Shown here piece after piece: positions 1 through 64,000 of a DNA stretch of 64,000 nucleotides. The notes beneath the pieces are model-generated. The model did not search any database. It was not told where the DNA came from and saw nothing but the letters and a program-made list of their open reading frames with translations. The position numbers were made by a program, and so were the translations under genes. This DNA is from Conchiformibius sp. GTDB lineage: Bacteria > Pseudomonadota > Gammaproteobacteria > Burkholderiales > Neisseriaceae. Each line of letters opens with the position of its first letter. Position 1 is the first letter of the stretch. The stretch is from assembly GCA_029984035.1 (NCBI GenBank), contig JASBYJ010000001.1, positions 213,534-277,533 on the forward strand, read 5' to 3'.

Positions 1-245
1 AAACTGCTTACGGTTTTCAGGCAGCCTGAGTGCATTACTCTGTTTTTATGCAATTGCGTTTAATGACAACGATGATTTGCATAAGCAAGATTTTCAGGCA
101 GGCAAGATATGATTGTGCTTTCATTATGTTGTAGTAATTACCAAAGCAGCTTTTTGATTTTCTGATAAAATATTGCCGTTTTTCTTTCAGGCTGCCTGAA
201 AAATACAGCGCAGCCTGATTACTTATCTGTAAACGATTTAAATAA

Positions 246-2051
246 ATGACAAAGTACATGAAAAATATACGAAATTTCTCTATTATTGCCCACATCGACC
301 ATGGTAAATCCACTTTGGCAGATCGTTTTATTCAGTTCTGCGGTGGACTTGACCCCCGCGAAATGAGTACGCAAGTTCTTGATTCAATGGATATTGAAAA
401 AGAACGCGGCATCACCATCAAAGCCCAAACCGCCGCCCTGAACTACAAAGCCCGCAACGGCGAAACCTACCGCCTCAACCTGATTGACACGCCCGGACAC
501 GTTGATTTTTCTTACGAAGTGTCGCGCTCGCTGTCTGCCTGCGAAGGCGCATTGCTGGTGGTGGACGCATCGCAGGGCGTGGAAGCGCAAACCGTTGCCA
601 ACTGCTACACCGCCATCGATTTGGGCGTGGAAGTCGTGCCGGTGCTGAACAAAATTGACTTGCCTGCCGCCGACCCCGACCGCGTTGCCCAAGAAATTGA
701 AGACATTATCGGCATTGATGCGGTGGGCGCGGTAACCTGTTCCGCCAAAAGCGGCATGGGCGTGGAAGACGTGTTGGAAGAAATCGTTGCCAAAATCCCC
801 GCCCCGCAGGGCGACCCCGCCGCGCCGCTTCAGGCAGTCATCATCGATTCGTGGTTTGACAACTATGTCGGCGTGGTGATGCTGATTCGCGTCAAAAACG
901 GCACGCTCAAACTCAAAGACAAAGTGCGCTTTATGGCGACAAAAGCCGAAACGCAAGTGGAACAACTGGGCGTGTTTACCCCGAAATCCGTGAACAAACA
1001 AGAATTAAGCGCGGGCGAAGTCGGCTTTCTGATTACCGGCGTGAAAGAATTGGGACAGGCGAAAGTGGGCGACACGGTAACGCTGGCGCAAAATCCCGCC
1101 GCCGAGCCTTTGGCGGGTTTTAAAGAAGTGCAAAGCCAAGTGTTTGCGGGACTTTATCCCGTGGAAAGCCACGACTACGAAGCCCTGCGCGATGCGCTGG
1201 AAAAACTGCAACTCAATGATGCCTCATTGAAATTTGAACCCGAAGTGTCGCAAGCCTTGGGCTTCGGCTTCCGTTGCGGCTTTTTGGGCTTGCTGCACTT
1301 GGAAATCGTGCAAGAGCGTTTGGAACGCGAATTTGATATGGATTTGATTACCACCGCGCCCACCGTGGTTTACCGCGTGATTATGAAAAACGGCGAAGAA
1401 ATGGAAGTGGAAAATCCGTCCAAACTGCCCGATATCGGCACGATTGAAACCATTTTGGAACCGGTGATTACCGCCACCATTCTGGTGCCGCAGGATTATG
1501 TCGGCAACGTGATGACCCTGTGCAACCAAAAACGCGGCGTGCAGGTGAATATGCAGTATCTGGGGCGGCAGGTGATGCTGACTTATGATTTGCCGATGAA
1601 CGAAGTGGTGATGGATTTCTTTGACAAACTCAAATCCACATCACGCGGCTATGCTTCGCTGGACTATGAATTTAAAGAGTTTCGTCCTGCCGATTTGATT
1701 AAGCTGGACATTATGGTGAACGGCGAAAAAGTGGACGCTTTGAGCCTGATTGTGCATCGTCAAAGCTCCGTGCATCGCGGGCGCGAACTGGCGGCGAAAA
1801 TGCGCGAGTTGATTCCGCGCCAAATGTTTGATATTGCGGTGCAAGCGTCCATCGGCAGCCAGATTATCGCCCGCGAAAACGTCAAAGCCCTGCGTAAAAA
1901 CGTGTTGGCGAAATGTTATGGCGGCGACATCACGCGTAAGAAAAAACTGCTGGAAAAACAAAAAGCCGGTAAAAAACGCATGAAGCAGGTGGGCAATGTG
2001 GAAATTCCGCAGAGCGCGTTTTTGGCGATTTTGCAGGTGGGGGATAAGTAG
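246..2051 (+). CDS. lepA: Elongation factor 4 (LepA), translational GTPase
   Basis: 601 aa. N-terminus [23 protein letters not shown] with GTP-binding motifs ([21 protein letters not shown]). Full-length LepA-like C-terminus. Start may be ATG at 246 or the in-frame M at 258. Confidence 0.95.
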
Positions 2052-2131
2052 TTTTTGGGTTCAGATTGCTTGAAAACGCAAGCCGCCTGAAAAAGTTTTT
2101 ACGTAGTATGAATTATAAGTAAGGGAAAAAT

Positions 2132-2890
2132 ATGAAACCAATCTTACCTATTGCGATTTGCTTAATTTTAACCTCTTGCGCTACTTCTGATTCAGCGTTT
2201 TGGTATCCCGAAATAAGTATTTTAAATGGTCAAAAAGTTGACCATATTTCGCCGGGAAAAAGTGTTACATTCGTTGGTTCCACTACTGATGAATTTAATC
2301 GCAATATGCCAGTTTATCCAAATGATCCCCAAGGAAATGCACATAAAATCATACATATTTCACCACCACCAAAATTTATTTTTGCCACCTGTGAAGGCAC
2401 CAGTTATAACAATACGGTAAGAATCACACGTACAGGACATCAATTAGTAAAAGGCTCGTTTCAAGAAGGAAAAACTTACCAAGTATATTGTAATGCTCAG
2501 TATGATAACAGTTTTGAAATTGTGGCACGTGAAGTACCTAATGGCACAAGTTTTTCTACCAGTTACGCTATGGATGCTTATTTTAAACGAGAACACTCTA
2601 ATACTTCCGGACGTGTGCGTTTTATTGCGACAGGAGAAACAAAAAATGGTGGATTTATGGGCTGGGGCACCAATCCTAACACAATGAACATATTAGGATC
2701 GGATGGTAAATTATCTGGCACAGCAGAACTAATTGCGCCTGTTAATCGTGTTATTGTATCTTGCAAGCGAAATGGCAGGGGAAAAATGGTAGATATCAAA
2801 CATGCTTTTGAAACAGGGAAAACTTATCGTCTGGATTGCAGAGAAGAAGCCAATGGAGAAATTTCTGCTTTTATTGTTGATGTACAGTAA
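2132..2890 (+). CDS. Hypothetical lipoprotein (signal peptide plus lipobox LTSC); AT-rich, no recognisable family
   Basis: 252 aa. N-terminus MKPILPIAICLILTSCATSD is a typical SPase II signal with lipobox. Codon usage is AT-rich relative to flanking lepA and maeB. An RBS (AAGGGAAAAATATG) precedes the start. Confidence 0.7.
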   Translation: MKPILPIAICLILTSCATSDSAFWYPEISILNGQKVDHISPGKSVTFVGSTTDEFNRNMPVYPNDPQGNAHKIIHISPPPKFIFATCEGTSYNNTVRITRTGHQLVKGSFQEGKTYQVYCNAQYDNSFEIVAREVPNGTSFSTSYAMDAYFKREHSNTSGRVRFIATGETKNGGFMGWGTNPNTMNILGSDGKLSGTAELIAPVNRVIVSCKRNGRGKMVDIKHAFETGKTYRLDCREEANGEISAFIVDVQ

Positions 2891-3057
2891 ACGTAAGGGG
2901 GGATTCTTGTATCCGATTTTTTTTCCTAAAAATTAACGAATTTATAGAAATAGTCGAGGTCAGATACTCGTATCCGACTATTCTTAAAATATCCGCAAAA
3001 TATTGAATTTAAAAATCCAACTTACATTTTCAGCTTGCCTGAAACGGAATATTCATC

Positions 3058-63277: not shown

Positions 63278-63314
63278 GTAGGACAAAAATTGATTTTTTA
63301 ACAGGAAGTATCGA

Positions 63315-63515
63315 ATGACTGAAGAAGTGTTTGCAACTTGGGCGTTACGTATCTGTTTGACAGGTCTGATTTTATTTATGGGCTTTATTGTGTGGCAGCT
63401 CGGACATGAAGCTAAAATAGGAAAATTCGGCATGTTTATTCTGTTTTTGGTTTTGGGCTTGGGCGTGCTCGGTTTTATTATTAAAAACATATTGGTATAT
63501 TTCATGTCGGCTTAA
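63315..63515 (+). CDS. Small two-TM membrane protein, hypothetical
   Basis: 66 aa. Two hydrophobic helices. No family recognised. Confidence 0.45.
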   Translation: MTEEVFATWALRICLTGLILFMGFIVWQLGHEAKIGKFGMFILFLVLGLGVLGFIIKNILVYFMSA

Positions 63516-63584
63516 CGGGCGATTAAAGCTGCACGGTTTGCGCTTTTACTATATGATGCGCTTTTTTGTCCGCACCGTATTTCC

Positions 63585-64000
63585 ATGAAGATTCTGAGCG
63601 ATTTTATTGCCATTTTGCTGTTTTTCGGTACGTACACGGTTACTAAAGACATTATTTTGGCTACTGTGGTTGCCGTAGCGGCGGGGCTGCTTCAGGCAGC
63701 CTATACCTTTGTACGCTTTAAAAAACTCAATGCGATGCAATGGTTGTCGCTGGTGTTGATTGTCGTGTTCGGCGGTTTGACGATTGTGTTGAAAGACCGC
63801 ACGTTTTTTATGCTGAAAACAACGATTTTGACATGGATGATGGCGGCTGTGATGTGGGTGCTCCAGCTGAGGGGGCAAAACGGTTTGCAGTTGCTGTTGG
63901 GCAAGGAAATCGATTTGCCCAAGCCGGTATGGAATAAAGTGGCTTATGCATGGATAGCGTTTTTTGTGTTGCTGGGTTTGCTGAACTTGGGTATTGCCTA
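63585..64000 (+). CDS. yciB: Intracellular septation protein A (YciB/IspZ); 3' end beyond the window
   Basis: MKILSDFIAILLFFGTYTVTKDIILATVVAVAAGLLQAAYTFVRFKK ... is the typical YciB N-terminus. The ORF is open to the end of the window, so it is absent from the ORF track. Confidence 0.75.
   Translation, partial: MKILSDFIAILLFFGTYTVTKDIILATVVAVAAGLLQAAYTFVRFKKLNAMQWLSLVLIVVFGGLTIVLKDRTFFMLKTTILTWMMAAVMWVLQLRGQNGLQLLLGKEIDLPKPVWNKVAYAWIAFFVLLGLLNLGIA

Follow-up and report, generated by a model that had tools for sequence, protein, structure and literature searches.

The 64,000-nt stretch of DNA analyzed here (the window, positions 1-64000, to the whole of which the counts below refer) contains a short repeat at very high density, and this repeat is very probably the DNA uptake sequence (DUS) of the published AG-simDUS dialect, carried by a bacterium of the family Neisseriaceae related to the Conchiformibius/Alysiella/Wielerella group. 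The pattern AGGCWGCCTGAA was found in 80 strand-readings, while 0.03 were expected from dinucleotide-preserving shuffles of the window, and the near-palindromic 15-mer TTCAGGCWGCCTGAA, consisting of 5' TTC and the 12-mer AGGCTGCCTGAA, was found in 24 copies with none expected; the strong over-representation of an uptake-sequence motif, which the original prediction had claimed, is confirmed. The oriented 12-mer AGGCTGCCTGAA, with its conserved CTG core and terminal GAA, occupies 56 exact sites (27 on the plus and 29 on the minus strand), the 10-mer core GCTGCCTGAA is present at 94 sites (1.5 per kb, against about 0.1 expected by chance), and the 9-mer core at 104. The motif tops the frequency ranking of the window for 10-mers, 12-mers and 15-mers alike. 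The earlier figure of 90-100 copies, about 1.5 per kb, fits the 10-mer and 9-mer cores and does not fit the 15-mer or the 12-mer.

The element is oriented. The AG-kingDUS 12-mer AGGCAGCCTGAA is represented by 24 readings, each lying with a 3-nt offset on the opposite strand of a TTC-preceded AGGCTGCCTGAA, and no copies of it were found in the window outside such dyads, simDUS being the sole primary dialect here. Because every copy of AGGCAGCCTGAA is the other strand of a TTC-extended AGGCTGCCTGAA, the W in the consensus first proposed is a shadow of the palindromic extension and does not reflect two dialects in use; both 12-mers can indeed be read on either strand, as had been noted, but AGGCAGCCTGAA only as the opposite strand of dyads. 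Profiling of the positions flanking the core gives (TTC)AGGCTGCCTGAA(A) as the extended consensus, with no longer conserved unit. The 5' TTC precedes 24 of the 56 12-mers (43%, against about 1 expected), 17 of these 24 dyads extend to TTTCAGGCWGCCTGAAA, and the remaining 32 12-mers show no preference at positions -3 to -1.

The sequences AGGCTGCCTGAA and AGGCAGCCTGAA are identical to the published AG-simDUS and AG-kingDUS, respectively (PMC3630211, PMC7371117, PMC10715097); both 12-mers are given by Hughes-Games et al. 2020 (PMC7371117) and in the 2023 Kingella phylogenomics paper (PMC10715097). The simDUS was described from Simonsiella muelleri by Frye et al. 2013 (PLoS Genet, PMC3630211), who also reported 1294 overlapping sim/king dyad occurrences, suggesting dimer-based recognition, as well as terminator-associated inverted DUS pairs in every dialect genome and a stop codon in one of the DUS reading frames. 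Hughes-Games et al. 2020 (Microb Genom, PMC7371117) found the dyad to be prevalent in Alysiella crassa and Kingella negevensis, and used regions poor in primary DUS and of lower GC content to locate genomic islands. Accordingly, nothing is new about the dialect, its overlapping dyads, the hairpins of inverted pairs or the idea of DUS-poor islands, all of which are already published; what is new comes down to one further lineage using simDUS as its sole primary dialect and a number of side observations.

The window shares with the dialects of Frye et al. (PMC3630211) the identical 12-mers, a density of about 1 per kb, occurrence on both strands, dyads, terminator-linked pairs and the single stop frame. 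The published form of the dyad, a sim/king overlap on opposite strands as TTCAGGCWGCCTGAA, is represented by 24 dyads, arranged as in S. muelleri, A. crassa and K. negevensis. In S. muelleri, however, both dialects are about equally frequent (2292 and 2257) and only a part of the copies is in dyads, whereas in the window kingDUS never occurs outside a dyad; the host is also another lineage, not close to any named species. The 12-mers of AT-DUS, AG-DUS, mucDUS, wadDUS and eikDUS are absent from the window, and the dialect comparison, with its match to AG-simDUS, bears out the earlier statement that the dialect is other than that of Neisseria sensu stricto. The uptake signal sequence (USS) of Pasteurellaceae is likewise a short over-represented signal biasing transformation toward DNA of the same species, but its sequence is unrelated and its receptor is different or unknown; the USS core AAGTGCGGT was not found in the window. 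Three copies of the canonical Neisseria 10-mer DUS GCCGTCTGAA were found (24374, 28181 and 47142, about 0.1 expected), the first inside a methylase gene considered below and a further one inside mnmG.

The best protein relatives are all from Neisseriaceae. For four proteins (sequences of the same source set aside), the identities are as follows:
S9 peptidase: best identity 72-73% (scan of a genome collection)
OxyR: best identity 82% (metagenome scan)
GlnA: best identity 88%; 86% to the named Wielerella bovis, Alysiella crassa and Neisseria leonii
MnmG: best identity 99% to Conchiformibius kuhniae; next relatives 91%
In loci from relatives, each lineage carries its own dialect at a similar density. 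simDUS as the sole primary form, with kingDUS only in dyads, was found in an Alysiella metagenome-assembled genome (MAG), Neisseria sp. HSC-16F19, Stenoxybacter and a Conchiformibius MAG, while Kingella oralis-like contigs show the reverse pattern; in this respect the window is like the lineages with simDUS alone.

The copies are distributed unevenly between genes and spacers, the 10-mer density being 5.7 per kb in intergenic and 1.0 per kb in coding DNA, an approximately 5-fold difference. None of the 48 intragenic 10-mers is read in the stop frame GCT GCC TGA on the same strand. By analogy with what is established in the Neisseria literature, ComP, a minor pilin of type IV pili, would act as the receptor of DUS on double-stranded DNA, the DNA would be pulled in by pilus retraction with the participation of PilT, and RecA would integrate it. 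PilT and PilU are both encoded in the window:
8119-10589, minus strand: pilU and pilT, genes of the ATPases for type IV pilus retraction, which belong to the uptake machinery
Biased uptake and recombination would spread DUS through resident DNA, copies settling where they are tolerated, between genes and in reading frames avoiding TGA, and the 5' TTC would make a symmetric 15-17-mer with simDUS on one strand and kingDUS on the other.

Inverted DUS pairs at gene ends are represented by 16 examples, for which hairpins of -16 to -26 kcal/mol are predicted; 11 lie in intergenic DNA, mostly 5-25 bp past stop codons, including convergent gene pairs. All seven pairs cited in the original prediction are present, at or within 4 bp of the positions it gave. 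Three of the pairs contain dyads and are listed with them below; the others are:
4351-4383: inverted pair with a 13-bp stem, -22.7 kcal/mol, 6 bp past the maeB stop
17872-17899: inverted pair, -21.6 kcal/mol, between convergent ogt and potF
19578-19615: divergent imperfect pair within minC
22146-22184: inverted pair in minus, plus order, -23.6 kcal/mol, 5 bp past the oxyR stop and 5 bp before zur
31374-31401: inverted 10/11-mer pair within the Band_7 gene
35027-35090: wide inverted pair within the 3' part of the S9 peptidase gene
41673-41699: inverted 10-mer pair, -18.8 kcal/mol, 23 bp past the glnA stop
47773-47801: inverted pair, -21.7 kcal/mol, within a doubtful open reading frame (ORF), the gene context being uncertain
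51925-51953: inverted 10-mer pair, -19.3 kcal/mol, 16 bp past the efp stop
52781-52823: divergent 9-mer-core pair within hemH
53736-53775: inverted 10-mer pair between divergent genes
57172-57200: inverted pair, -21.7 kcal/mol, between the convergent ORF 56839-57150 and tyrS
61637-61663: inverted pair, -20.8 kcal/mol, intergenic
Inverted DUS pairs, or dyads with extended arms, located past stop codons probably double as transcription terminators. Terminator scans gave 38 vs 29.5, 32 vs 26.1 and 45 vs 29.8 candidates relative to shuffled expectation (an excess of about 1-3 standard deviations); their strongest entries are DUS hairpins, most of which lack a clean T-tract. Two long perfect hairpins with 19-20-bp stems, at 42234-42279 and 46605-46649, are unrelated to DUS; the first of them includes ATGCCGTCT, the first nine bases of the Neisseria AT-DUS.

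The original prediction also held that DUS density collapses in AT-rich accessory segments. Over all 1-kb bins, the simple correlation of GC content with DUS count is not significant (Spearman rho 0.12, P=0.33) and was rejected, although the bins below 0.44 GC are poorer (0.64 vs 1.64 DUS per kb elsewhere, P=0.007). Long gaps are present in core DNA as well:
191-4353: lepA and neighbors, core DNA of normal GC content, the longest gap without a 10-mer
4372-6978: maeB, core DNA, GC 0.51
7899-10680: pilU and pilT, core DNA, GC 0.52, 2.8 kb
With sites about five times more frequent in intergenic than in coding DNA, a gap arises over any long gene, and much of the patchiness goes back to long coding stretches. 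An AT-rich ORF at 2132-2890 (252 aa; GC 0.375; GC at third codon positions, GC3, 0.24), with no family match, lies inside the longest of these gaps and is a candidate foreign gene absent from the initial list.

Poisson expectations for the individual segments were derived from one background rate for coding and another for intergenic DNA; since DUS are clustered in pairs, the resulting P values are on the optimistic side. The segments include a patch with genes of solute-binding proteins (SBP) and a restriction-modification (RM) type cassette:
35310-40090, SBP patch: 1 observed, 15.1 expected, P=5e-6
RM patch: 0 observed, 3.1 expected, P=0.04 for the 10-mer and 0.2 for the 12-mer
29.5-30.2 kb: 1 observed, 4.0 expected, P=0.09
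glnA to the rhodanese gene: 3 observed, 7.5 expected, P=0.06
Before correction for base composition (considered below), the predicted collapse is clear in the SBP patch, statistically weak in the RM stretch despite its zero count, and not evident at 29.5-30.2 kb, a stretch too short to judge, which contains one 10-mer at 29576 and a near-DUS at 29605. Within the interval of 35.3-42.3 kb named as DUS-poor, the part at 35.08-40.09 kb does contain a single exact 12-mer, while at 40.1-42.3 kb three 10/11-mers flank glnA.

Several points weigh against the AG-simDUS interpretation and what has been built on it. The sole published statement on Conchiformibius is that it uses no previously defined DUS (PMC10715097), and Frye et al. 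(PMC3630211) state that simDUS itself was not functionally verified. The gene comP is absent from the 64-kb window, and we infer terminator function for hairpins few of which are followed by a clean T-run. According to our own calculation, a 10-mer of 60% GC is expected by chance about 2.7 times less often in DNA of 36% GC than in DNA of 50%; when corrected for composition, the depletion of the SBP patch reaches only about P=0.02 and that of the RM cassette is not significant. Concerning the first of these points, the C. kuhniae locus CP091521.2 847717-869603 (21.9 kb) contains 13 copies of GCTGCCTGAA against 0.05 expected, five of them full 12-mers, and C. kuhniae clearly carries the simDUS core, contrary to that statement.

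The patches themselves allow another explanation, which we consider a real possibility, although short of an even chance: the AT-rich DUS-poor patches would not be recent imports from donors lacking DUS, and the scarcity would result from base composition and coding or regulatory constraint in long-resident DNA. The features of the SBP patch, together with the neighboring glnA, are as follows:
35310-40090, plus strand: AT-rich DUS-depleted patch with long spacers and three SBP_bac_3 lipoprotein paralogues
35660-36508, 36678-37550 and 38573-39472: the three paralogues (SBP1, SBP2 and SBP3)
37855-38371, minus strand: pseudogene of an IS1595-family transposase, frameshifted, corresponding to residues 15-188 of 217 of the ISEc69 transposase
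37746-39821: strain-variable segment including the IS1595 remnant and SBP3
37578-37604: the only exact 12-mer DUS of the patch, paired with GGGCTGCCTG to form the SBP2 terminator hairpin, then T7; conserved in the second strain
39515-39541: degenerate DUS-arm hairpin past SBP3, AGGCAGCCTgtaattAGGCTGCCT, then T5
40232-41650, plus strand: glnA, a native core gene inside the patch taken as foreign, flanked by DUS
The insertion sequence (IS) remnant reported earlier in this patch is real, being the transposase pseudogene listed above. All three paralogues have lipoprotein-type signal peptides (...LSAC or ...LVSC), with no adjacent gene for an ABC permease or ATPase.

Explanation by long residence agrees with the equally long DUS-free gaps over lepA, maeB and pilU/pilT at GC 0.51-0.52 and with the low background of coding DNA, against which the RM zero has the P values given above. 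The paralogues are mutually only 46-48% identical, which points to old duplications, and glnA is native: its best named relatives are Neisseriaceae at 86%, and its description as foreign has to be abandoned. A second strain (Logan SRR33398665, contig L084) shares the S9 peptidase-SBP1-SBP2 region with the window at 96.4% nucleotide identity and the glnA region at 93.9%. Since the former value is about the same as in the flanking core DNA, a recent import of SBP1 and SBP2 is unsupported, and both genes are older than the split of the two strains. The terminators built from DUS arms also argue against a very recent arrival. On the other hand, the GC content of the patch is 0.33-0.40 and the GC3 of the paralogues is an extreme 0.30-0.33, compared with a window median of 0.56 (0.30-0.46 for the SBP and RM patches together), and 2.2 kb of non-coding DNA in the SBP patch contain 1 DUS against about 12 expected. 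Among 5.8 billion proteins, no relative above 39% identity was found for the SBP paralogues, SBP2 among them, apart from each other, and no donor was found. Further evidence against long residence is the strain-specific segment with the IS1595 remnant and SBP3: in L084 its place is taken by 742 unrelated bp (3484-4225), while SBP1 and SBP2 are present in both strains. Judging by this comparison, the 2.1-kb segment is truly accessory.

The two strains also show turnover of DUS by point mutation. Upstream of glnA, an intact dyad and DUS in L084 (4270-4310) correspond to a decayed copy in the window (39870-39900); about 200 bp downstream the case is reversed, with the copy at 40092-40103 intact in the window and decayed in L084 (around 4510).

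The RM-type cassette is composed of the following genes:
23358-27557, plus strand: RM-type cassette, GC 0.30-0.47
23358-25343: methylase with an N-terminal nuclease-like HSDR_N_2 domain
25373-26776: specificity subunit
26793-27557: half specificity gene
No gene of a restriction subunit was found in the window. The best NCBIfam match is to the MADS2/MADS5 families of methylation-associated defense, well below the cutoff. Plasmid genes related to the methylase were found in the cyanobacterium Picosynechococcus PCC 7002 (65.5% identity) and in Klebsiella (60%), and these nearest plasmid-record relatives also speak against long residence. The segment 23325-26060 contains no DUS-like site even with two mismatches. 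The GC content falls from 0.61 to 0.43-0.30 in the cassette and returns to 0.60 at mnmG, with about 0.50 elsewhere in the window. The cassette is plausibly mobile, a reading based on the plasmid relatives and the GC content and not on the DUS count. No second strain spanning it was found, and the Logan assembly of the same sample (SRR24332702) is interrupted to the left and right of the cassette. Among the available Neisseriaceae, gene order is conserved neither around the S9 peptidase gene nor downstream of zur, which leaves no basis there for an empty-site comparison.

The region 22800-30300 is a mosaic of successive GC blocks (about 0.61, 0.38-0.47, 0.30, 0.40-0.52, 0.53-0.65 and 0.35), two borders of which coincide with 17-nt DUS dyads, at the left edge (23309-23325) and the right edge (27543-27559) of the RM cassette. 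Abutting the cassette, the ORF 22692-23264 (190 aa, GC 0.61) matches only the C-terminal 160 residues of leucyl-tRNA synthetase, being 66-70% identical to LeuS of Neisseria; no full leuS was found in the window, and the ORF, being only a fragment of the gene, marks a junction of rearrangement or insertion. An Rfam scan of the window found only tRNAs; in the tRNA cluster 30415-30714, an 89-nt 'tRNA-Gln(ttg)' scored only 34 bits in Rfam, and ARAGORN left the anticodon of another tRNA unassigned.

The minimal mobile elements of Neisseria (Saunders and Snyder 2002) are reportedly cassettes swapped between conserved flanking genes by transformation. Similar to them, the RM cassette is flanked by conserved genes, lacks mobility genes and has one of the two 17-nt dyads at either end, but no alternative occupants were seen and no close relative spanning the locus was found. 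The islands of Hughes-Games et al. (PMC7371117) resemble the window patches in that fewer primary DUS and lower GC content are read as horizontal acquisition, the same idea as in the original prediction. Those islands, however, are integrative and conjugative elements located beside tRNA-Asn and rich in a foreign dialect, whereas the patches here contain no integrase or conjugation genes and consist of small cassettes, one an RM module and the other an SBP segment associated with an IS. Enrichment in a foreign dialect was not found in the DUS-poor patches: the RM methylase gene contains one GCCGTCTGAA and the SBP patch none.

The proposed rule that DUS-poor DNA was recently imported from donors without DUS therefore holds for 37746-39821 and, plausibly, also for the RM cassette, but neither for glnA and 29.5-30.2 kb nor for the recency of SBP1 and SBP2. 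The rule is unreliable because coding density and base composition yield similar gaps. DNA entering by other routes, or AT-rich DNA, would have few DUS, as in the IS-associated SBP3 segment and plausibly in the RM cassette, while DNA brought by transformation from a donor of the same dialect would arrive with its DUS. mnmG probably represents the latter case:
27567-29484, plus strand: mnmG and a leader of about 45 bp, GC 0.58, GC3 0.69
This segment is 95.7% identical to C. kuhniae CP091521.2 at the nucleotide level and 99% at the amino acid level, uniformly along its length. Its flanks are unrelated to C. kuhniae, and nothing else of the 22-kb C. kuhniae locus is matched in the window. Its GC and GC3 are among the highest in the window and match the genes of C. 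kuhniae (GC3 typically 0.64-0.77); of its three internal 10-mer DUS, two are common to C. kuhniae, and a dyad lies about 8 bp before the start of homology. At 96% nucleotide identity, mnmG stands apart from GlnA, OxyR and the S9 peptidase, for which nothing above 73-88% was found; it was therefore probably acquired recently, from a high-GC donor that resembles C. kuhniae and shares the dialect, on the assumption that closer C. kuhniae homologues of these three proteins would have been returned by the searches. Assignment of the whole window to C. kuhniae was rejected: apart from mnmG nothing matches, the flanking DNA is unrelated and the GC content is different. The best-documented recent import is both DUS-rich and GC-rich, and a search for DUS-poor DNA would miss it.

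A broader interpretation can be offered only tentatively: the window would come from a lineage related to Conchiformibius with simDUS as the sole primary dialect and with ongoing gene flow across species of differing GC content, and dyads would act as two-way landmarks of uptake and recombination bracketing exchangeable cassettes. It is suggested by the 96% identical mnmG allele, located in a sharp GC mosaic with cassette borders at dyads.

The dyads, including those in the three inverted pairs mentioned above, are located as follows:
186-200: dyad TTCAGGCWGCCTGAA with simDUS on the plus strand, intergenic, 46 bp upstream of lepA
7093-7107: dyad within the ORF 6762-7211
10730-10760: dyad in a 31-nt perfect palindrome, 19 bp past the ilvE stop
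13347-13376: dyad with an inverted partner, hairpin of -20.8 kcal/mol, 5-8 bp past the lapB stop
13505-13519: dyad, intergenic, upstream of rsgA
14467-14612: 65-bp tandem repeat, 2.2 copies, with three DUS (14468 on the minus strand, a dyad at 14533 and a dyad at 14598 in a 25-nt palindrome)
16687-16701: dyad, intergenic, upstream of avtA
20005-20019: dyad (19-nt palindrome) between the minC stop and the minD start
22769-22783: dyad within the ORF of the leuS C-terminal fragment
23309-23325: 17-nt dyad at the left edge of the RM cassette
27543-27559: 17-nt dyad, right edge of the RM cassette; about 8 bp further on, the homology to C. kuhniae mnmG begins
28146-28160: dyad within the mnmG coding sequence, its 10-mer core common to C. 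kuhniae
30208-30228: dyad in a 21-nt palindrome, upstream of the tRNA cluster
32993-33007: dyad, 3 bp past the stop of the Band_7 gene
34306-34320: dyad within the S9 peptidase gene
46573-46587: dyad, 18 bp past the stop of the ORF 45941-46555
47631-47645: dyad (19-nt palindrome) at the 5' end of the queuosine-precursor transporter gene
50475-50489: dyad within sodA
52664-52707: two dyads as an inverted pair, -26.1 kcal/mol, 7-10 bp past the hemH stop
57452-57466: dyad within tyrS
58537-58569: inverted pair with a dyad as one arm, -17.7 kcal/mol, between tyrS and the NnrS gene
61554-61568: dyad, intergenic
The units of the tandem repeat at 14467-14612 are 96% identical, and each opens with a DUS and also holds the one-mismatch variant GCTGTCTGAA. 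A few dyads are embedded in palindromes of 19-31 nt and are able to form single-element hairpins. About six dyads are located in genuine coding sequence (mnmG, the S9 peptidase gene, sodA and tyrS), and for this reason the dyad is not only a terminator.

It is conceivable, but rather unlikely, that the functional unit is the symmetric 15-17-mer dyad itself, recognized by a dimeric receptor or read on either strand, with plain 12-mers as half-sites or decayed dyads. The excess of TTC before the 12-mers and the frequent extension to TTTCAGGCWGCCTGAAA agree with this, as do the dyads within genes, where a terminator is not needed, and the dimer-based recognition proposed by Frye et al. (PMC3630211) for the same arrangement. 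Against it stand the 32 of 56 exact 12-mers without a preference upstream and the few dyads in other sim loci (4 of 18 in the Alysiella MAG, 3 of 18 in Neisseria sp. HSC-16F19 and 2 of 13 in Stenoxybacter); moreover, the core AGGCWGCCT is itself palindromic, and symmetrization may be a by-product of selection for hairpins or terminators. Many copies are intergenic, palindromic and located past stop codons, as would be expected of a family of repetitive extragenic palindromic (REP)-like elements or terminator hairpins, or of a protein operator, unrelated to DNA uptake, but such an origin is very improbable, since 46-48 of the 94 10-mers are intragenic, single and non-hairpin and avoid the stop frame, the motif matches a DUS dialect exactly, lineage-specific 12-mer variants are present in relatives at the same density, and no longer conserved unit surrounds the core.

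The remaining sites are single 12-mers and sites with the 10-mer only (n=38), given with their strand:
16-27, minus strand: single 12-mer
Further single 12-mers: 7607-, 15119-, 15238+, 15330+, 17102+, 21143+, 26061-, 26862+, 33291+, 46521-, 49990+, 53401-, 59827-, 61747+, 63691-
10-mer only, first part: 4353+, 6978-, 7473+, 7899-, 10680+, 11817-, 12108-, 12789-, 16367+, 17442+, 18553-, 29064+, 29307+
10-mer only, second part: 29576-, 31376+, 31390-, 33571+, 35029+, 40094+, 41675+, 41688-, 43175+, 43394+, 44214-, 45961-, 48489-
10-mer only, third part: 49458-, 51927+, 51942-, 53738+, 53764-, 54695+, 55657+, 58539+, 59118+, 62039-, 62370-, 62965+

In annotation, the motif should be labeled as the known AG-simDUS. 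Two observations may be of interest to specialists: the presence of the simDUS core in C. kuhniae DNA, at odds with the published statement, and the use of simDUS alone by some lineages, unlike S. muelleri, in which sim and king forms are equally common. As a method, DUS-free gaps are a poor stand-alone marker of foreign DNA, and imports from donors of the same dialect, such as mnmG, arrive DUS-rich and are missed by scans for DUS-poor regions. If the tentative reading of dyads as landmarks of exchange between species is true, scans for DUS-rich regions of odd GC content would reveal imports that such DUS-poor scans have missed.

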